The notes under the pieces were generated by a model. The model ran no database searches and was not told the origin of the DNA. It saw nothing but the letters and a program-made list of their open reading frames with translations. From a virus (lineage: Duplodnaviria > Caudoviricetes): 46,312 nt of DNA. Shown here piece by piece: positions 8,834-45,913 of this stretch (positions within the stretch are counted from its first letter, which is position 1; the number at the start of each line of letters is the position of its first letter). Location: the IMG/VR virus record IMGVR_UViG_3300024309_000080, positions 1 to 46,312 of that record. One strand, 5' to 3'. Made by a program: the position numbers and the translations under genes.

Positions 8834-11181
8834 TCCGCTGCGCTCCCCAAGGTGCAGGCTTCGATTTCCTTGCCGGCGGCGATCTCTTCCTCGGCCTCGC
8901 GCATGATGTCGTCGAGGCTGCGCTCGCCCCTGCCATCGCCGATATCAACGAGGATCGGCGTGACATGCGGCTTCGGCGAGGAATCATCCGAGATCGGCCC
9001 GAGCTGGCGCTCTTCATTGTCGGCGATCAGACGCTCGGCGTCCATGATCGTTGCCTCGACCGTCTCGGGCGCGGCCTCGATCTCGTCTATCCGCTCCGGC
9101 GTCAGACGTTCGTCGACGACGCGGTAGAGGTCGTTCCGTCCGACCCGCTCCAGCGAGCCCTTGAGGATATCCGGAGCGGAAAGCGGGTCCCCAATCAGGC
9201 GCGGCCCGGCGTCGTTCTTCCGTGCTTCATCCGCGAAGTCGCGGAGGAACGCGGCGAGGCGAGCGCGGCCCACAGGGCGTTTCATCTCGGCATCGGAGAA
9301 CATCGCGCGCGCCATGATCTTCGCCATCTCACCCGGGCCGCCGAACATTTCTGCCTGGTTGACCAGATCGGAAACGGCGCGGCCTTCGTCGCGGGCACGC
9401 ATGACGAGCTGCACCGCCTTGACCAGATCATCGGTGATGTCCATGCCAGCCGGGATTTCGCCGCGCGCTACGGCATCGCGCATCCTCGCCCACGGCCCGG
9501 CGCTGTCGGAAAGGGCCCCGCCGATTGCCTTGATGTTGTTATCGCTGTCTTCGAGCGCGCGGCCGAGAAGGGCGGGCTCCCCATAAGCACGCCCCATCAA
9601 TGCCGCCGTGATCCGGCGATTGCCCTCCTGCGAGAGGATGCCGTTGCGGTCGATGAGGTTGCCCTGCTCGGCGCGTGGGAGGCGAGCCATGAATCCGCGA
9701 GTGAATGACGCGTTGCCCGCAGCACCGATATCACCATCGGCGAGACTGTCGAGCATGGCGGTGTCGATCATGCGGGCGTCGGCGAGCGCTTGCTCGGCAG
9801 CCCCGAGGCGCATGGCCGTCGAGCGGTTCGCCGCCGTCACGAACCCGACGCGGTCTTCAAGGTCCGTGACGCGTCGAGCGATCAGCACCGGGTTGTTGAT
9901 GCCGTCGAGGTCGAAATTCTGCGCGCGGAGGAAGTTGCGATAGCTTTCCGCCGGCGCGCCGCCGTTCTGGTAGGCCCGGCGCAGCGCGAGAACGCGACCA
10001 TTCCCGGACTCGACAAGCCCGTCGAGACCGACAACGGGGGCGCCGGTCCCGGCATCCGTGGAGAAGCCAAGGCGCTCCGGCTGGAGATTGGCCGCGATAC
10101 CGGCAATCTGGTCCTGCGACATGGCGCGGGACCGATCCCGCGGCTGAAGCTCCTGCGGGAAATCGGGGTTGATGGAAAGATCATCGCGGTTCGACGTGAT
10201 CAGGCTGTCTGCATCGACGACTTCATACCGGACTCCGACGCTATTGCCGTCAGCATCGTAGATCCGCCCGGGGCGCGCATTCGACTGGAGGAAGGCCTCG
10301 GGCGGGAGCTCCACCGGGCGGCTGCGGGTGATGTCATCCACGGCCTTCTCGAGCGCTGCGCGGTGCGCGTTCTCGCCGGCCATTGACCGCTGGAATCTGC
10401 TTTCGGGGATAGCAGCCTCGCGCGCGAGGACGTTGCCCGCGTCCTTGATGTGGCGCGGCCATTCGCCGGTCTTCGCCCGATGCCACAAGCTGGCGAGACC
10501 CTTCAGGCCACCGCCGAGGATGGCGCCGCCGGCGGCGGCCGCCGCGACTTCCCCCAATGCATCGTCCGCACCGAAGGACGGATCGATCCGCTGCTTCCGC
10601 TCCAGCGTCGCGCCTTGGATGACAGCCTCGGACAGTCCGCCGACCGCCGCCTCGGTAAGTGCGGTTCTGATCACGCCGGCGGACGCCGATGCGCCAAAAC
10701 CCATGCTCAACAGGTTCAGCGGATCGGTGATAGCGCCTGCGATGCTGCCGACCACGCCGCCGACTGTCGAGCCGAGCCCGGTGGAGCGGCGGGCGAGCGC
10801 TTCCGCGCCGGCGCGGGCCTCGCGCGCCTCTCCCTCGGAGGCCTTGACGAAATCCTCCTCTGTCGGAAAGACGAGATCGCTCCCGGGGTTCTCGGATTTC
10901 CACTGGTCGAACTGCTTTCGCGCGACGTCCATTGCGTTCGCGTTCATGCTGTCGATCCAGCCGGGGAGGCGCTGGCCGCTTTCCTTGTAGAACCGAACCT
11001 GAAAATCGTTCTGCACGGCGAGGGCGTTGCGATGGCTGGCGTTGGAATTGGAGAAGTTGACCATCGCATTGAAGTCGGAGGCGAGCCGCGCACCGAACCC
11101 CGGGTCAACGCCTTCAAAGGGCCGGCGCGCCGCTGCCTGCAACGCGCCCGCCATTTCCCTGTCATCGACGATGAACGCCAT
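8830..11181 (-). CDS. internal virion protein with DdrB-like ParB-superfamily domain
   Basis: YEVVDADSLITS, ELQPRDR, GAPVV and VESGNGRVLALRRAY motifs; glycine-rich hydrophobic segments near the N-terminus. Confidence 0.75.
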   Translation of the reverse strand: MAFIVDDREMAGALQAAARRPFEGVDPGFGARLASDFNAMVNFSNSNASHRNALAVQNDFQVRFYKESGQRLPGWIDSMNANAMDVARKQFDQWKSENPGSDLVFPTEEDFVKASEGEAREARAGAEALARRSTGLGSTVGGVVGSIAGAITDPLNLLSMGFGASASAGVIRTALTEAAVGGLSEAVIQGATLERKQRIDPSFGADDALGEVAAAAAGGAILGGGLKGLASLWHRAKTGEWPRHIKDAGNVLAREAAIPESRFQRSMAGENAHRAALEKAVDDITRSRPVELPPEAFLQSNARPGRIYDADGNSVGVRYEVVDADSLITSNRDDLSINPDFPQELQPRDRSRAMSQDQIAGIAANLQPERLGFSTDAGTGAPVVGLDGLVESGNGRVLALRRAYQNGGAPAESYRNFLRAQNFDLDGINNPVLIARRVTDLEDRVGFVTAANRSTAMRLGAAEQALADARMIDTAMLDSLADGDIGAAGNASFTRGFMARLPRAEQGNLIDRNGILSQEGNRRITAALMGRAYGEPALLGRALEDSDNNIKAIGGALSDSAGPWARMRDAVARGEIPAGMDITDDLVKAVQLVMRARDEGRAVSDLVNQAEMFGGPGEMAKIMARAMFSDAEMKRPVGRARLAAFLRDFADEARKNDAGPRLIGDPLSAPDILKGSLERVGRNDLYRVVDERLTPERIDEIEAAPETVEATIMDAERLIADNEERQLGPISDDSSPKPHVTPILVDIGDGRGERSLDDIMREAEEEIAAGKEIEACTLGSAAE

Positions 11182-14100
11182 TACCGCCCCCTGAGATCGA
11201 GCACGAAGACGGAATTCAGATCGACGCCGCCGCCGGGATGTGGCGCCGAGCGCATCGCATAGGTCGGATAGTCGTCGTTGCCGAACTCAAGAACATAGCG
11301 TCCGTCGGCAACAGCCCGCAGACGGCCCTCGTTGCGGAGGTCTGAGGCGCTGACCGGCTGGCCGGTGGACGTCACCGCACCGGCGAGCGCCGATGACGGG
11401 AGCCCGGCGATCATCGTATCGAAATCGCTCTGGCTCATTCCATAGCGCGGCGAGATTACGGCCTTGCCGTTCATTTCGACGAGACCGCCAGTCACTTCGT
11501 TGATCGCCGTCTCCATCCGGGTTTCGTCGAGATCGCCGGAACTGTCCCCCGCCTGGTGCGAGAGATCGGCATAGCGAGCCGTCGCGGCCTCAAGCACGGA
11601 CTGGCGGGCACCTTCGAGCGTCGGACCAAACGCCTGAATGGGCAGCAGCTCGTTGACGGCCGCCTTGTTGTCGTCGGTCTTGCGCGGTGCCAGCAATGCA
11701 TTCTCCTTCATGAGCGCCTGCCCGCGAAGGATGCCCTCGGCGACCTCTGGATTCTGCGATACGAGTGCGCCGGCCGCAGCCATGACTTTGCCGTCTCCCT
11801 TCGCCGCAAGGGCGTTCAGCGTCGCGCGATAGGTCTCCGGCCGCATATTGGACGCCATCGACCCGAGCAGGTTTACCGCATCTGCTGGCGTCGAGGTGGA
11901 AAGCGCGCGGGAGACCTGCTCTTGCATCGCCGGGCGAAGCGCGGAAACGTTCCCCACGAGCCCACGCGCCTGGAGTATATCAACGCCCCGCTGAAGGCTC
12001 TGGAACGTCTGCCCCCAAGTATCGGGCTGCTTGAGATCCAACGGCGGGACGGGCGTGATCATCCGCTGGTTCATCGCATAACCGATGGGATCATTCTTCA
12101 GCGCGGTCGCGCGAGCCTCCGAGGCCGCCTCCATGCCGGCAACGATCTGCTGCTGCGCGATGGTCGCGCCGTCTCCGGCATCGGAGCGTAGCGTGGAGAT
12201 CAGGCTTTCTACCTGCGCTGGCGCCATGCCCTGCATGGATGCGGTCGCCGACTGCATCGAGAGATAATCGGCCACCTCTTTCCGAAGGTCCTGATCATCG
12301 ACGATCGAAAGCTGACGCGTCAGGAGGTTGAGGTCGGTAATCGCCGGCGTCATCCCCTTGTCATACCCGGCCTTGATGTCGGTGAAGAGCGCCTTTGCAT
12401 CTGCAGTCGCCTCTTTCCGGTACTCAGCGATGATGTCGGGACTGATCGTGGGCCCGCCACGCGTCGAGGAATCCTCGATATGCCAATTCTCGTTCCTCAG
12501 CGGGAACTTGAGCCCATAGGTCCCGGCGTTGTCGTGCAGCCATTTGACCACCTCGACCGGCGCATCCTTGAGAGACGAGCCGTTATATGAAAGGTCGGCG
12601 GCCGTGCCGTGATTGTGGTTCGATTTTCCCGGAGGGGCGACCCACTTGCGCGCCGCTGCCTCGGAACCGTAACGCTTCACTGCGTCGGCATAAAGCTCGG
12701 CCTGGCGCTCATTGCTACGCGCGCCCGAATAGATGCCGAGCTTATCCCGGATCTCCGGCGGTGCAGCCTGAAGCAGGCGCGACAGCTTCACCGCGAAGGC
12801 GTCATCGAGATTGGCGATGTGGGAGGAATCCTTATCCGTCCGGCCTTGAAGAAATGTCTTCGATGCGGCTGCCTCTTCGGGCGAGAAGGTGACAGAGCGC
12901 CCCGCGCGGCCGAGCACTTTCTTGTAGTATTCGGCGGATTCCTTCGGGATCGCGCTGTCATCGCGCCCGGCCGCGAGCCATGCATCCGCGCGCGCGGCCC
13001 CGCCGTTGTACGCGATGAGCGCGGCTTCCTTGTCGCCTCCATACCGCGTCATCATCTTGTTGAAGTAGTGTTCGCCGTACCGCATCGAAACTGCGGGGTC
13101 CTTCAGATACGCCTTCTTCTCCGCTTCCGTCCCGTTGATCGGGAAGCCAGCGTCGCCGAGCTCCGCAGCAATCTCAGCGCCAGTACCAGGCATCACCTGC
13201 ATCAGCCCCGATGCGCCCTTGCTGGATTCGGCGTTGGGGTTTCCTTCGCTCTCGGTACCGCGGATCGCGGCAAGAACTTCTGCGCCGCCGTTCGCCTGCG
13301 AGAACGCCGTCTCCGCCATGTTCATCTGCGTCGGATTGTCGGAAAGGCGGATTGCCTGGATGGTGCGGGCCGTGGAGCGAGCCTCGTACAGTTCGAGCGC
13401 TCCAGCCATGTCACCGCCGCGCGCTAGCGTTTGGGCAGTCGTATCGATGTCGTCGCCATCGAGACCGACGCCTTCCTTGAGGCGCTTCTGAATCTCTTTA
13501 GACTGATCTTGCACCGGCTTCAGATCGGCCTTTGTCTGCGCGATGAAGCCGTTGATCCGCTCATTTGCCAAGCTGGCGTACTGTCGCCGCTCCGACGGCT
13601 CCAAAGCAAGGCTATCGTCGGTCAGGATACGCTTTGCCACGTCGCGCGCCGCCGAGATGCCGCCAGTCTCCAGCGACTTCTCGACCGTCCCGAGCATGGC
13701 CTCCGACATGTGGCGGGACTCCATCCGTTTTAGCGCGATATCTGCTTCCTTCTCCCCAACCGTAAAATCGGGGTTCCCGGCGAGTTCGGACCACAGGGTC
13801 TTGAGCTGCGACTGCTTGGACAAGTAGGCAGGCGTGTTCGTCCCGCCGGCGCGTGCCAGCGCGGACATATCATCATCGAGAAGACTGATCTCGGCTTTGA
13901 TGTTGCCCTCGAATTCCTTTAGATCGGCCTTTCGCTTCCGCTCGGATACACCGAGGCGCAACTCCGGCCCGTTGGTGTCGAGCACCGTCTCGACCGCGCC
14001 GCGAAACTCGCGCGGGACCGCCGTCATCGTTTCGTCGCGGAACGCCTTGTAGGAGGAGTCGAAAAGATCGACGTTCCCCTTCGACTCTTCGGCAAGCTCT

Positions 14101-14411
14101 GCGCCGCGCCGGCGGATGTCGCCGGAGAGGCGGGCCATATAGCCTTGCTGCGCCGCGCGATTGTAGGCCCGACCTGTGGCCGAGAAATTCGACTTACGGT
14201 CAACTTGAAGATTGCCGTTCTCGTCGCGATAGACGCCCGCCTGTCCTTCATTCGTCGCGTTCTCGATGGCTTGCTCCTCGACGGCCTTACCCATCGTGCC
14301 AAGAGCGTCGGCGATGATCTGGTACTGGTTCGCGACATCGGCGCCGCTCACGGAAGAGACCGGGCCACGGATCGTTGCGCCGCGGGGCTGGAGGGTCGGC
14401 AGTTTCACCAT
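11181..14411 (-). CDS. internal virion protein with lytic transglycosylase (SLT) and M15-type peptidase domains
   Basis: TESEGNPNAESSKGASGLMQVMP..AYNGG (SLT); SGARS..APPGKSNHNHGTAAD..ENWHIE (M15). Confidence 0.88.
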   Translation of the reverse strand: MVKLPTLQPRGATIRGPVSSVSGADVANQYQIIADALGTMGKAVEEQAIENATNEGQAGVYRDENGNLQVDRKSNFSATGRAYNRAAQQGYMARLSGDIRRRGAELAEESKGNVDLFDSSYKAFRDETMTAVPREFRGAVETVLDTNGPELRLGVSERKRKADLKEFEGNIKAEISLLDDDMSALARAGGTNTPAYLSKQSQLKTLWSELAGNPDFTVGEKEADIALKRMESRHMSEAMLGTVEKSLETGGISAARDVAKRILTDDSLALEPSERRQYASLANERINGFIAQTKADLKPVQDQSKEIQKRLKEGVGLDGDDIDTTAQTLARGGDMAGALELYEARSTARTIQAIRLSDNPTQMNMAETAFSQANGGAEVLAAIRGTESEGNPNAESSKGASGLMQVMPGTGAEIAAELGDAGFPINGTEAEKKAYLKDPAVSMRYGEHYFNKMMTRYGGDKEAALIAYNGGAARADAWLAAGRDDSAIPKESAEYYKKVLGRAGRSVTFSPEEAAASKTFLQGRTDKDSSHIANLDDAFAVKLSRLLQAAPPEIRDKLGIYSGARSNERQAELYADAVKRYGSEAAARKWVAPPGKSNHNHGTAADLSYNGSSLKDAPVEVVKWLHDNAGTYGLKFPLRNENWHIEDSSTRGGPTISPDIIAEYRKEATADAKALFTDIKAGYDKGMTPAITDLNLLTRQLSIVDDQDLRKEVADYLSMQSATASMQGMAPAQVESLISTLRSDAGDGATIAQQQIVAGMEAASEARATALKNDPIGYAMNQRMITPVPPLDLKQPDTWGQTFQSLQRGVDILQARGLVGNVSALRPAMQEQVSRALSTSTPADAVNLLGSMASNMRPETYRATLNALAAKGDGKVMAAAGALVSQNPEVAEGILRGQALMKENALLAPRKTDDNKAAVNELLPIQAFGPTLEGARQSVLEAATARYADLSHQAGDSSGDLDETRMETAINEVTGGLVEMNGKAVISPRYGMSQSDFDTMIAGLPSSALAGAVTSTGQPVSASDLRNEGRLRAVADGRYVLEFGNDDYPTYAMRSAPHPGGGVDLNSVFVLDLRGR

Positions 14412-22410: not shown

Positions 22411-22855
22411 CGTCGCGCCCTTCCGAGCCAATCAATTCGCCGCCTTTAGCGAGAATTTGCCGGTAAAGGGTGTCCGGTCGCAAAGCACAGGTGCGCAGAC
22501 CGATGATGTGGGCGACGGCCGGCACGCACCAGAAGCCCGGACGGAAGACGAAGCCGGACGCGTCGGAGAGAAGGCGCGGGAATCGGATCACCGGCCCGCT
22601 CATCGAATAGTAGGCGATCGCCATGTCCGCCTCCCAGTCGCCAACCACGATGACGTGGGCGCGGTCGGTATGGAGATCGTAGAACACCCAGGAGCCGGAG
22701 CGCGGCACCTTGCCGAACACGCTGACATGCTTGAAGCGGCCCCAAGCGAGCAGGTTTACCCACCACTTGTCGCTCTTCTCGTGAAAGACCACGAACCATT
22801 CCGCTGGTTCGCATTCTGCCAGCGGAAGCCGGCTGTTGAGATCGTCAGAATCCAC
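22379..22855 (-). CDS. putative permuted papain-like peptidase
   Basis: GTG start with GAGG; FKHVSVF (His) precedes FWCVPAV (Cys) and LRPDTL. Confidence 0.5.
   Translation of the reverse strand: MDSDDLNSRLPLAECEPAEWFVVFHEKSDKWWVNLLAWGRFKHVSVFGKVPRSGSWVFYDLHTDRAHVIVVGDWEADMAIAYYSMSGPVIRFPRLLSDASGFVFRPGFWCVPAVAHIIGLRTCALRPDTLYRQILAKGGELIGSEGRDDENSQGGKRS
22480..22490 (-). promoter_or_regulatory. phage promoter motif (portal operon)
   Basis: TTGCGA-18 nt-CAAATT, embedded in a CDS. Confidence 0.65.
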
Positions 22856-24440
22856 CGCGTCGCCTCGATTTCTTGTGAACCTTGATGTCGACAGGGCCCC
22901 TTTTGCCGGTGCGGTCCCGCCCCACGACGACCCGGCCCTCGCCGGCGCCGAGAACCATGTACTGGCAAGCGTCCGCGATGTCGGAATACCGATCCTTGAA
23001 CGGCTTTTCCTCGTGTCGGGCGGTGCCCTTGATGCGCTTGAAGTGATAGCCGCCGGCACACGCCACTTTCAGCGTACGGCAATGCGTGCCGCAGACCAGA
23101 AAGCGCGGCAGGCCGTTCACCATGGTGATCATGGCGTATTCGACGGCCTCGATCCGGGTCTGGATGTGGTTGTTCTTCACCGGCGCTGGCGTCACGGGCA
23201 TCCCGAACGACCGGAAAATGTCATAGGCCGTGTTCTCATCGGCCTGCGTGCCGTCCTCACCCTTCGGATCGCCGAAGAACTCGACGGAGAAGCCGCCCGG
23301 ATCGCCCTTGCTGGAGGCGAGGTGCCAGTCGCCGAGGCGCTGATCGAGCAACTGCTTCACCAACGGCGCGAAAATCGACGCGCCGACGCCGCTGGCAGCG
23401 CGCTCCGCGAAGATCAGCCAGCGATTGTTGACGAGCTGCCCGACGACACAGGCCGGATTGCGGCCGAAGTCGAGGCCGACATAGACCGGCCAGCCCGGGA
23501 TCGGTTCGAGCGGCGTCTTCGAGACATGGGAATCCTCGTTGAACTGCTCCCAGACCGGCTTGCCGTCGACATAGACCGTGATCTTGTTGAGGACGCGGGA
23601 ATCAATCCACTTCTTCGCCTTCCCCTTGATCTTCTCCGCATAATAGCCGGGCTTCAGCCATTTCGTATTCTCGGCGCGCGGGTTCATCTTGTACCCGATC
23701 AGCGTGCCGCCGCCGTCCTTCACCTCCAGCATCGCCGGCGGCTGGACATGGTATCCCCAGTTGTCGGGCTTCTGGTAGGCCAGCCGCTCCTCCTCCGTCC
23801 AATCGTCGGGAAGCGGTACCTCGCCCATCATCAAGGGGATGAAATGATCTTCGCGCGGCGCGTTCATGTCGGCGATCACGCCGTCCCACGTCGCCCCGCC
23901 GTCCTTCACGGCCGGATATCGGCCGGTGCGCGACTCCGCTTCGTCGACGATGGCCTTCTCGATGAATTCGAGCTCGTTGAACCAGATGCCGGTGAACTCG
24001 AACGAGCGCAGCTTGCGGATATCGTCTTCGCTATCGAGCGCGAGGAAGATGATCTCCATCTCGACGTCGCCCAGGCGGATGACATGCCGGAAAGGACGAT
24101 CCCAGTAGAACCGGCCGTACATGTCTTCCGGGAACCAGTCGAGCCACGACTTCACCGTCGTGTTTTTCAGGTCGGGGAAGGTGTTGCGGCAGACCGCCCA
24201 GCGCGTCTTGCGGACACCATCCGCGTTGGGCGCCTGCTCGTTCGAGATCATCCACATCTTCATGATGCAGGCGGTCGAGGTGCCGGAGCCGATAGATCCG
24301 CGGATGATCGAGACGTGCTTCCGGCATTCGAGGAAATCGCGCAGGACCTGGCCGTCGGGCTCGTAGATCTTCCGGCCCTCGCCGTCAAATTCGACTTGCG
24401 GCAGTTCCGCCGGGCGCTCGGGCTCTTCAATCCTGAGCAT
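22845..24440 (-). CDS. terL: terminase large subunit
   Basis: Walker A-like RGSIGSGTS, Walker B-like GIWFNE, nuclease GLDFG and terminal DACQY. Confidence 0.92.
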   Translation of the reverse strand: MLRIEEPERPAELPQVEFDGEGRKIYEPDGQVLRDFLECRKHVSIIRGSIGSGTSTACIMKMWMISNEQAPNADGVRKTRWAVCRNTFPDLKNTTVKSWLDWFPEDMYGRFYWDRPFRHVIRLGDVEMEIIFLALDSEDDIRKLRSFEFTGIWFNELEFIEKAIVDEAESRTGRYPAVKDGGATWDGVIADMNAPREDHFIPLMMGEVPLPDDWTEEERLAYQKPDNWGYHVQPPAMLEVKDGGGTLIGYKMNPRAENTKWLKPGYYAEKIKGKAKKWIDSRVLNKITVYVDGKPVWEQFNEDSHVSKTPLEPIPGWPVYVGLDFGRNPACVVGQLVNNRWLIFAERAASGVGASIFAPLVKQLLDQRLGDWHLASSKGDPGGFSVEFFGDPKGEDGTQADENTAYDIFRSFGMPVTPAPVKNNHIQTRIEAVEYAMITMVNGLPRFLVCGTHCRTLKVACAGGYHFKRIKGTARHEEKPFKDRYSDIADACQYMVLGAGEGRVVVGRDRTGKRGPVDIKVHKKSRRRGGF

Positions 24441-24930: not shown

Positions 24931-24983
24931 CACACTCTCCATCGCTTGAGATGCGCGCATCATCGGCGGCGGGGAGGAACGCG

Positions 24984-24994
24984 GCAAAGCACTG
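24984..24994 (-). promoter_or_regulatory. phage promoter motif (terL operon)
   Basis: TTGCCG-17 nt-GATGAT. Confidence 0.75.
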
Positions 24995-25011: not shown

Positions 25012-25535
25012 ATGGCTAGCCGGCCGCCCTTCAATCCCGGTTTCTCAGGGCTTTGAAGGTGATTTCCTTGCCAAGACCGGCCGGCTCAGTTCGTGCATTT
25101 TTTGCACATACTGTTACGGCTATGCCGTATGGGGTCGGGAAGGCAGGAAAGCGCGTGAACCTTGCCAGCCTCGCCCGTAAGGGCCGCTCCAGACGCTACA
25201 TGGGCGCTTAGGGCTGGTCACTTTCTTCCCGATCTCGTTTGCCTTTCGGCGAATTCAGACGGCGGAGGCCAGCCCGCCGACCTGCAAAGCAGGATTTGAG
25301 TTGGGCCCGCCTTCCTCAGCACGCGTGGCTGGGTACTACCGAGTTTCGCGTCCCCGCGGCATCTAAGGGTCTTTCACCTACTCTGCCGCCACGCTCCGAG
25401 AATCTACGACCGTGCGCTATCGGAAGCGCGCCACACGGAAGTTTCCGCCCTATCGAGCGAACTAGCCGGGAAGGAACGGCCGGGCACGAACCCCAACCTT
25501 CACGACCGCCTAACATTGGCATGGCCGCCTTCCCG
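25012..25535 (-). ncRNA. putative large structured non-coding RNA (about 520 nt)
   Basis: no credible CDS; own promoter motif upstream; many nested helices, GAAA loops and a long-range stem 25458-25469/25081-25093; ends approximate. Confidence 0.7.
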
Positions 25536-25567
25536 CAGCAGAATATCGCCTGTGCGGCACCCGATCG

Positions 25568-25578
25568 GCAAAGCACTC
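25568..25578 (-). promoter_or_regulatory. phage promoter motif driving the putative ncRNA
   Basis: GTGCTTTGCCG-18 nt-GATATT; predicted start near 25535, at the first helix. Confidence 0.7.
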
Positions 25579-25738
25579 AAAGCCGACGGGTGAGATACAG
25601 CCAGCTCATCCCCACAAAGGCCGCGAATTTATCCCAGAAGCCCGGGGCGACATCGACACCGCCGCAATCGCACCAGCCCGGCCGCTTCGCAGGGCCCCGA
25701 TGCAATGAGCAATCCGACCAGTGGTTTCCCGTATCCAT
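25577..25738 (-). CDS. small Cys/His protein
   Basis: GGAG upstream; HWSDC..WCDC motif. Confidence 0.6.
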   Translation of the reverse strand: MDTGNHWSDCSLHRGPAKRPGWCDCGGVDVAPGFWDKFAAFVGMSWLYLTRRL

Positions 25739-25808
25739 CGCCGTTTCTCCGTAGCTGAAAAAAATTCCGCGTCCCGAATGCCTGAAATGCGCATGTTGTG
25801 GGTGAGGG

Positions 25809-25958: not shown

Positions 25959-26120
25959 CTTCGTCACTCCTGATCGAATGAAAAATTTTTGAGGTCGAAC
26001 ATCTGGAAGAGCGCGAACATTGTGTGAGGGTGGAACTGGAAACTTCGCGGCCAATTTTGCCCCCACCCCCGCCTCTGAGGCCTCGAAATCGAGAACGAAC
26101 CCGGTACGGGGGCGCGTTCC

Positions 26121-26678
26121 TCAATCCTCCTCGGGAACGCCTTCCAATGTTTCTAAGCCGATAACCTCATCCTGCTCCAGATGGTCTATCTGTGGTGCGC
26201 TCTTCACGTCGTTCCGCCGGTCGATCTTGATCACGTAGCCAGGCGTCACCTTCACCGTGTTGTTGACCTGCACGTTGACCTGTGTGGCGCCGACCGCGTG
26301 GCTCGGGCGATCCATGCCGTCGAGGTACTTCGCGGCCTCGAACTGGATGCGCTCGGTCTTTGCTTCATCGACAAGCTCGATCATCTTACGCAAGGCGCGG
26401 GGGCGACCGCTCGTCCTCAACACCTCCATACACTCGTTCATGTAGGCCAAGGTCTGGGGTTTGGTGAGTGCGGCGCGAAGGCTTTCGTCATGCATGCCAA
26501 CGGTTTCGGCGGCCTCTCTGCGCTTCTGGCCTTCGTACACCATCAGCTCGATTGCCAGCTTCGTCTTCGGATTGAGCGCGATCTCTTTCTTCTGCTTTGC
26601 GACGATGGCTTTCGCGGATCGCGCCTTTGCCCCGTAATCCTTCGCCTGCTTTACTGGCCTTGGCATGGTGGTCATCAT
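26121..26678 (-). CDS. terminase small subunit-like HTH protein
   Basis: HTH-like segment (RREAAETVGM), ERIQFEAAKYLD, C-terminal GYVIKID; upstream of terL; start trimmed. Confidence 0.6.
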   Translation of the reverse strand: MMTTMPRPVKQAKDYGAKARSAKAIVAKQKKEIALNPKTKLAIELMVYEGQKRREAAETVGMHDESLRAALTKPQTLAYMNECMEVLRTSGRPRALRKMIELVDEAKTERIQFEAAKYLDGMDRPSHAVGATQVNVQVNNTVKVTPGYVIKIDRRNDVKSAPQIDHLEQDEVIGLETLEGVPEED

Positions 26679-26723
26679 TCCTGCTGATCTGTGGGTGACG
26701 ATATCGGGATCGAAATCGCTTCG

Positions 26724-26734
26724 GCAAAGCACGC
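26724..26734 (-). promoter_or_regulatory. phage promoter motif (terS)
   Basis: GTGCTTTGCCG-18 nt-TATCGT. Confidence 0.65.
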
Positions 26735-26740
26735 TCTCCC

Positions 26741-26870
26741 GGTTCTCGTTTCCGTTTCCGTTTCGATTTCCGTTTCGGTTTCTCGTCTCCGTATCTATCT
26801 CTCGTTTCCGTCTCTCGTTTCTCGTTTCCTGCCATAGCATTGGGATGGCATACGAATGGCATTGCCATGC
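26741..26870. repeat. degenerate CGTTTC hexamer array plus TGCCAT/ATGGCA repeats
   Basis: strongly pyrimidine-skewed tract 26741-26829, then four TGCCAT copies in both orientations. Confidence 0.85.
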
Positions 26871-45836: not shown

Positions 45837-45913
45837 TGGTGATCCCGCCGCGATTCGAACGCGGGACCCCCAGATTAGGAATCTGGTGCTCTATCCTGCT
45901 GAGCTACGGGACC
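45837..45913 (-). tRNA. tRNA-Arg(CCT)
   Basis: GGTCCCG acceptor, TAGCTCAG..GGATAGAGC D arm, CCAGA-TTCCTAA-TCTGG anticodon arm, GTTCGAATC T loop, encoded CCA. Confidence 0.97.

Follow-up and report, generated by a model that had tools for sequence, protein, structure and literature searches.

What fills the roughly 520 nt that separate the two terminase genes of this provirus? The stretch of DNA that we analysed (the window, 46,312 nucleotides) is a provirus, 96% complete, whose connector (head-tail), capsid and terminase genes all lie on the minus strand. Between the terminase small subunit gene (terS; 26121..26840, minus strand; phrog_2538, E 4.6e-7) and the large subunit gene (terL; 22845..24440, minus strand; phrog_2, E 9e-20) sits, also on the minus strand, an array of RNA elements that an earlier note had read as one large, ornate RNA with a structural, packaging-related or anti-defence role. 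We conclude with high confidence that this array, which is shuffled and accessory, contains a real and undescribed RNA family, and we see the region as structured phage RNA that is uncatalogued and probably expressed late. The result adds a family missing from Rfam, with a pseudoknotted fold that can be tested.

The slot between the terminase genes

The region has no credible gene, as the earlier note had stated: the two open reading frames that overlap it (25316-25576, minus strand, and 25239-25754, plus strand) are not conserved. Across 26 homologues, moreover, the spacing between anchors of the conserved core element falls in all three reading phases, so the core is non-coding. Two copies of a promoter-like motif do bracket the region, with exact GTGCTTTGCC at 25567-25576 and 24983-24992. 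GTGCTTTGCC is over-represented in the window (12 matches with at most one mismatch vs 3.0 expected; 11 of the 12 on the minus strand), and a copy of the motif lies within the terS-terL interval in 12 of 25 loci, counting the window's twin; its position before genes suggests that it serves as a promoter. A -35/-10 reading of the upstream copy (25542..25576, minus strand) would place a start near 25535, in agreement with the proposed start at the first helix, although a sigma-70 scan made no call. The downstream copy (24958..24992, minus strand) shares an 11-bp direct repeat with the upstream one, and the presence of this repeat on both sides of the insert suggests entry by recombination at promoter repeats. 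No terminator-like site was found after the window's array.

Comparison with close relatives bears directly on what the array is for. We collected 28 loci with a terL 78-100% identical to that of the window, terS also being present in 25 of them. Their terS-terL intervals range from 373 to 1859 nt and are filled with changing small genes, which makes the slot a variable site for cassettes. The RNA is present only in L012, an identical twin of the window, and a covariance model found no core in any of the 25 other close terL relatives, one of which has a 99% identical terL. On this absence we read the window's array as an accessory cassette that occupies a variable part of the packaging operon. 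The bacteriophage phi29 uses a packaging RNA, the pRNA, and a location between terS and terL would suit an RNA of that kind. An RNA required by the motor should, however, be found in all phages that share it, whereas here the slot varies in content and the core is missing from all 25 close terminase relatives. A packaging-related or structural role is for this reason unlikely, a pRNA-like function extremely so, and of the three roles first proposed anti-defence is the one favoured.

Two further elements were seen in this slot. Directly after the terS stop lies a G-rich/C-rich element of about 160 nt (25965-26121, minus strand) that recurs in those terL relatives whose intervals were inspected; its 3' part is repeated near 25805-25740 as a leader of small genes. 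A packaging site and a leader for cassettes are both possible identities of the element. In L008, the position of the window's array is occupied by a second uncatalogued module of about 120 nt, without an Rfam match in that locus, which is shared with L129:2660-2780 and with L071, where it lies upstream of the core.

The conserved core RNA

The conserved unit is a core of 136 nt (25303..25438, minus strand), of which we count 27 distinct sequences including that of the window, nearly all from phages or prophages. The family was reached through a 91-nt match in phage Pam5, followed by pattern scans and then a covariance model. Chance matches were removed by eye before counting, namely most of the 57 loci from one pattern scan, and L045, L048-L052, L054, L055, L117, L260-L263, L265, L267 and L268; the covariance model also rejected L054, L055, L117, L265, L267 and L268. 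Duplicates were counted once (the window's twins L012, L030, L042, L057, L125 and L259, and repeats including L121, L124, L115 and L123). Three members that were not used for training reach E 1e-33, 2e-23 and 9e-34 with the covariance model. The core is rare, with one new example in 150 genomes of the family and none in 400 of the order, and a search of plasmids gave no match. Named carriers are Rhizobium sp. YJ-22 and two cultured phages, Rhizobium phage RHph_N3_2 and Pam5, which points to a Rhizobiales-like host.

In the proposed fold, P1 (25438-32/25416-10) is crossed by P2 (25426-20/25399-94) to give a first pseudoknot. P3 (25389-84/25361-56) follows with a tandem-GA-type loop, and a third domain within the core consists of a bulged-G-type stem with a variable arm. 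Covariation among homologues, a check that the earlier note had named, is strong for the core. In an unfitted MAFFT alignment of 24 sequences, 89.4% of cells are paired vs 79.1% in shuffles (0 of 500 as high) and 17 of 31 pairs have changed on both sides, both figures being calculated with relatedness ignored. A model-fitted alignment of 26 sequences gives 97.5% vs 86.2% (33-46% for slid controls), again with relatedness ignored, and two-sided change at 14 of 25 pairs; for most members the search pattern had itself fixed some of the core's bases, which bears on these counts. One-sided changes yield G-U pairs when read on the minus strand. When the P1 strands of 21 distinct pairs were swapped, own partners averaged -10.6 kcal/mol vs -5.0 for swapped ones (0 of 20000 permutations), and the own partner was best in 14 of the 21. 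The first pseudoknot is thus well supported.

The second pseudoknot, which is weakly supported, would be formed by 25393-90/25350-47 crossing 25354-52/25305-03. In 25 of 27 sequences there is full pairing between the four bases that precede P3 and a tetramer of the third domain, whereas a competing 5' partner achieves this in 20 of 27. The pseudoknot is on this count probable rather than proven; its helix has one two-sided and one one-sided change. The existence of competing partners for 25393-90 hints at a switch. In the third domain, one of the AGUA segments that the earlier note had taken as signs of loop-E motifs (25337-25334) faces GAA (25314-25312) in a bulged-G pattern, so that the suggestion stands for that segment. 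AGUA opposite GAA corresponds to the consensus of the bulged-G motif. The window's own bulged-G stem deviates from the family consensus.

The core also has invariant unpaired bases, and together with a compact fold that has one well supported and one probable pseudoknot they would suit a ribozyme, such as one cleaving the array in which it lies. A 180-nt metatranscriptome contig (depth 3) begins, without a loose end, at the second base of P1, but a second contig from the same study extends 51 nt further upstream. No Rfam ribozyme matches, even at E up to 10, and the strand order is unlike that of HDV-like, twister and pistol ribozymes; an HDV-like topology for the core was rejected on this ground. 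We consider catalysis improbable. The only run with the whole stretch, X1, has it inside a 25.9-kb contig of flat, DNA-like depth; in this metatranscriptome the entire 19 kb lies in a single flat contig, which may be DNA or the window's own source. Four further runs from three studies (X6, X13, X20 and X21) hold contigs of 164-234 nt at depth 2-5 on the core of relatives, and one short contig covers the core from P1 to just beyond the linker. These short contigs are no evidence of expression because the runs were selected using this stretch.

Rfam, searched at gathering thresholds and at E up to 10, gave nothing above chance in the window; this was the first check that the earlier note had named. 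By Rfam models and ARAGORN the window matches none of GOLLD, ROOL, OLE, tmRNA, RNase P or introns, and the region is uncatalogued. Within the titles and opening lines of abstracts of the open-access literature searched, we found no description of this RNA. The readable tables of a catalogue of 10,000 candidate phage RNAs (PMC10690425) do not contain short strings of the core, and its alignments may hold it.

The array as a mosaic of modules

Around the core, the array is made of small elements on the minus strand. Module 1 (25467..25535) consists of two hairpins enclosed by an 8-bp stem, in which the acceptor sequence of phage tRNA-Pro(UGG) is found and after which comes G and not A73. In local folding, 7 of its 8 stem pairs have probabilities of 0.92-1.0, vs 0.07 in global folding, and related interiors occur in L056, L092, L008 and L156; an interpretation of the two hairpins as D-arm and T-arm was dropped because the loops vary among homologues. 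Linker hairpin 1 (25441..25463), common to L092, L118 and L114, leads to the core. Beyond the core come module 3 (25259..25300), a pair of short hairpins that is identical in L118 and 86% identical in L058, where the first stem shows paired changes, and linker hairpin 2 (25234..25255), of the AAUUCG-stem-CAACG type and near-identical in L092, L118 and L129. Hairpins of this type, with different stems, directly follow the core in L081, L083, L109, L056, L101, L104, L108, L114 and L119. Module 4 (25130..25232) has a second tRNA-Pro-like acceptor stem, followed by A and then CCCCA; a search with its interior gave five matches, the only real one being the window's twin. Of two hairpins at 25088..25129, the first also follows acceptor-like stems in L092, L118, L162 and L170. 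Module 6 (25013..25086) is a three-way junction with a 9-bp closing stem (probability 0.91-1.0) and has one homologue, L258, 70% identical over 71 nt, in a tRNA-led array.

Because these parts occur separately and reordered in other phages, with other interiors, the region is not a single 520-nt molecule, and the array is a mosaic of separately folding small RNA modules. Several of the pairings reported earlier are found again in other phages, namely the two CGGGAAG/CUUCCCG stems, the GCGGCA/UGCCGC pairing, the GCC-GAAA-GGC, CCUGC/GCAGG and UACGGC/GCCGUA hairpins and the 3' domain. The GAAAGUG/CGCUUUC and CCAGCC/GGCUGG pairings lie inside the second acceptor-like stem, for whose interior no homologue was found. 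Two other pairings fared differently. The long-range stem 25469-25458/25093-25081 has a pairing probability of 0.00 with and without a span limit, is at chance level (an equal stem arose in 133 of 300 shuffles) and lacks an equivalent in the five homologous arrays that could be tested, while GCGUGGC/GCCACGC reaches a probability of at most 0.02 and clashes with covarying helices. As a whole, the minus strand folds only modestly better than shuffles (z -1.98; 3/100); the plus strand scores better (z -3.91). Global folding prefers to pair one acceptor-like stem with the other (0.4, vs 0.05-0.07 for the local folds).

These observations make it very improbable that the array folds or assembles as one large RNA in the manner of GOLLD and ROOL. 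According to bioRxiv 2024.12.08.627333, GOLLD and ROOL are prophage RNAs found near tRNA islands, without a known function. That they are structured and pseudoknotted is a further likeness to the present array; two self-complementary CGCG segments could, speculatively, permit multimers. In contrast to those single large folds, however, the array is shuffled, its conserved unit is about 136 nt, no fold is conserved over its whole length, its only full-length homologues are identical twins, its long-range stem is unsupported and no Rfam model matches.

A mosaic of this kind might also be a passenger or decaying cassette, with its repeats acting as DNA recombination handles and no gain for the phage. 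The 11-bp direct repeat around the insert, the rarity of the core, the departure of the window's bulged-G stem from consensus and the stem ends of L008, which look inverted relative to their interior, would all fit. Against this, the use of G-U pairs, the non-canonical loops and the paired changes imply selection on the RNA in the family, and an unrelated array, that of L118, has kept the window's version with hardly any change: 25474-25232 is nearly identical there, while the interiors of both stems and the flanks differ. We regard the passenger explanation as distinctly unlikely.

The two acceptor-like stems connect the array with phage tRNAs. The window's array lies in the same slot as the tRNAs of sister phages, and its stems share the 7-bp acceptor sequence of tRNA-Pro(UGG) with C1-G72; their interiors, unlike those of the tRNA, are not cloverleaves, and ARAGORN and Rfam found no tRNA and no cloverleaf with an anticodon in the window's array. 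A scan with the stem sequence over 12 of 64 parts of a viral collection gave 122 loci, most of which look like chance, and 8 of the 122 are tRNA-Pro(TGG) genes with this stem as acceptor. In L162 and L258, an acceptor-like stem with a non-tRNA interior directly follows the CCA of a tRNA, and tRNAs occur within the same arrays in L104, L119, L156 and L162. Bacterial tRNA-Pro is defined by C1-G72 and A73 (PMC10164551); the window has C1-G72 in both stems and A73 only in the second, which has no encoded CCA. Host tRNA-Pro genes start with CGG and end in CCGACCA. Tails after the acceptor-like stem are ACCA in L092, L108, L114 and L129 and GCTA and ACCCCA in the window, and across the 122 loci the tail is uninformative (AC in 14). 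Other tRNA-related elements were noted in passing: downstream of the core, one without an anticodon arm (L111) and one with a broken anticodon (L119), and, at L162:446-520, a tRNA with an unusual acceptor.

Sister arrays and possible function

One way to account for the core is as a cis-acting leader, either for read-through of terminators by late transcripts or as a shield against 5' exonucleases. The put RNA of HK022 provides a precedent, since it causes read-through of terminators in cis. Of 23 other loci tested, 14 have the array behind a same-strand gene from one of five families; three of these families are NusG-like antiterminators, and the remaining ones, judged by position, would be late regulators. 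Terminase genes follow the array in L082, L083, L095 and L129, and a heuristic of our own, used without a control, places a terminator-like site at most 800 nt downstream in 11 of 26 loci. Against this, 25 close relatives lack the core although they have the same late genes, and the core may stand first in an array, late in it or in between. In L029 a terminator-like site comes 10 nt behind the core, and neither L068 nor L122 has the core at the head of a terminase operon. We disfavour a cis-leader role because close relatives do without the core and its position is free, and consider it unlikely.

The cargo of sister arrays points elsewhere. In 6 of 27 cores, that of the window not among them, the variable arm holds a T arm followed by a D arm, the order of the YrlA Y RNAs (RF02553; PMC4201824). 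L029, L122 and L264 score 25-38 bits with the YrlA model, below its cut-off of 69. A YrlA lower stem immediately precedes the core in L129 (34.9 bits, E 1e-4) and likewise in L081. The likeness to YrlA includes phage-borne tRNA mimicry; the differences are that the halves are split between modules, that the window has neither half, and that the Ro60/TROVE gene, expected within 4 kb of a YrlA, was found in none of the eight core-carrying records (the window among them) and two core-carrying genomes searched. The YrlA motif GNCGAAN0-1G is not at the 5' strand of the closing stem in the window, where the core stem reads CGCGAAAC. Its only match there is a tetraloop hairpin at 25250, whereas L129 and L081 have it, in separate modules. 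The core's third domain was also considered as the Ro-binding stem of YrlA and rejected, as the published and Rfam alignments do not fit. Upstream of the core, L129 (2403-2465), L081 and L083 carry what look like miniature Y-RNA stems without the tRNA-like domain, in phages without Ro60, and in L083 a YrlA-like 5' strand leads straight into P1.

A second kind of cargo is an abiF motif at L156:509-544 (40 bits, cut-off 37), between a tRNA and an acceptor-like stem, in a provirus (96% complete) without an Abi_2 gene. L156 and the window have stems and 22 nt of module 1 in common; the 1.3 kb of L156 contain no core. The motif was found in this one array and in 0 of 4 further records, in a search whose controls also stayed silent. 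PMC12373285 describes abiF-motif RNA as neutralising AbiF in trans, and the presence of this motif, without its toxin, in one of the sister arrays is a likeness to the abiF and type III antitoxins (RF03085). The window itself has no antitoxin family motif by Rfam (abiF, ToxI), and none of its modules matches a known antitoxin or Y RNA. Phages also encode antitoxin mimics, such as pseudo-ToxI and RNA anti-CRISPRs, and ToxI is a pseudoknot. Like the modules envisaged here, these are small RNAs that bind defence proteins, and ToxI shares the pseudoknotted character of the core; unlike type III antitoxins, the array strings together many dissimilar modules rather than repeats of one antitoxin.

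It is the tRNAs of sister arrays, the Y-RNA halves without Ro60 and the abiF motif without its toxin that lead us to read the array as a set of RNA decoys. Orphan copies of protein-binding RNAs would match the expected look of decoys, and we give somewhat less than even weight to a model in which separate modules are cut apart and act as decoys for host RNA-binding defence proteins. The orphan copies are the chief support for this model, though an indirect one: a single abiF case and YrlA scores below threshold, with nothing recognisable among the window's own modules. Host RNase P and 3' nucleases would be expected to cut at acceptor-like ends of this type. According to the model, the array would be transcribed from the promoter-like motif, starting at 25535, and then probably be cut apart by host tRNA-processing nucleases, with RNase P and 3' trimming acting at the acceptor-like stems and AU-rich linkers offering further cleavage sites. 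The released modules would act in trans on host RNA-binding defence or surveillance proteins, the compact core perhaps providing a stable scaffold or a protein-binding mimic, able to present a tRNA elbow on its variable arm. A more specific version is tentative: in temperate phages of Rhizobiales-like hosts, the arrays might be a shuffled library of RNA decoys, with tRNA-Pro acceptor stems as expression frames, the double-pseudoknot RNA as scaffold or mimic, and each module jamming one defence protein (AbiF, Ro60 or tRNA-attacking enzymes). If each module does answer to one protein, unknown modules would be pointers to defence systems yet to be discovered. Should the arrays prove to be decoy libraries, they would represent an RNA-only route of counter-defence, provide bait for fishing out the host proteins that they bind and offer a lead on why phage tRNA islands hold so many structured RNAs without a known function.

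Two features elsewhere in the provirus were also noted. A tRNA-Arg(CCT) gene at its end (45837-45913, minus strand) is probably the attachment site, and a 1076-aa protein (11181-14411, minus strand) with lytic transglycosylase and VanY-like peptidase domains is probably an internal virion protein.
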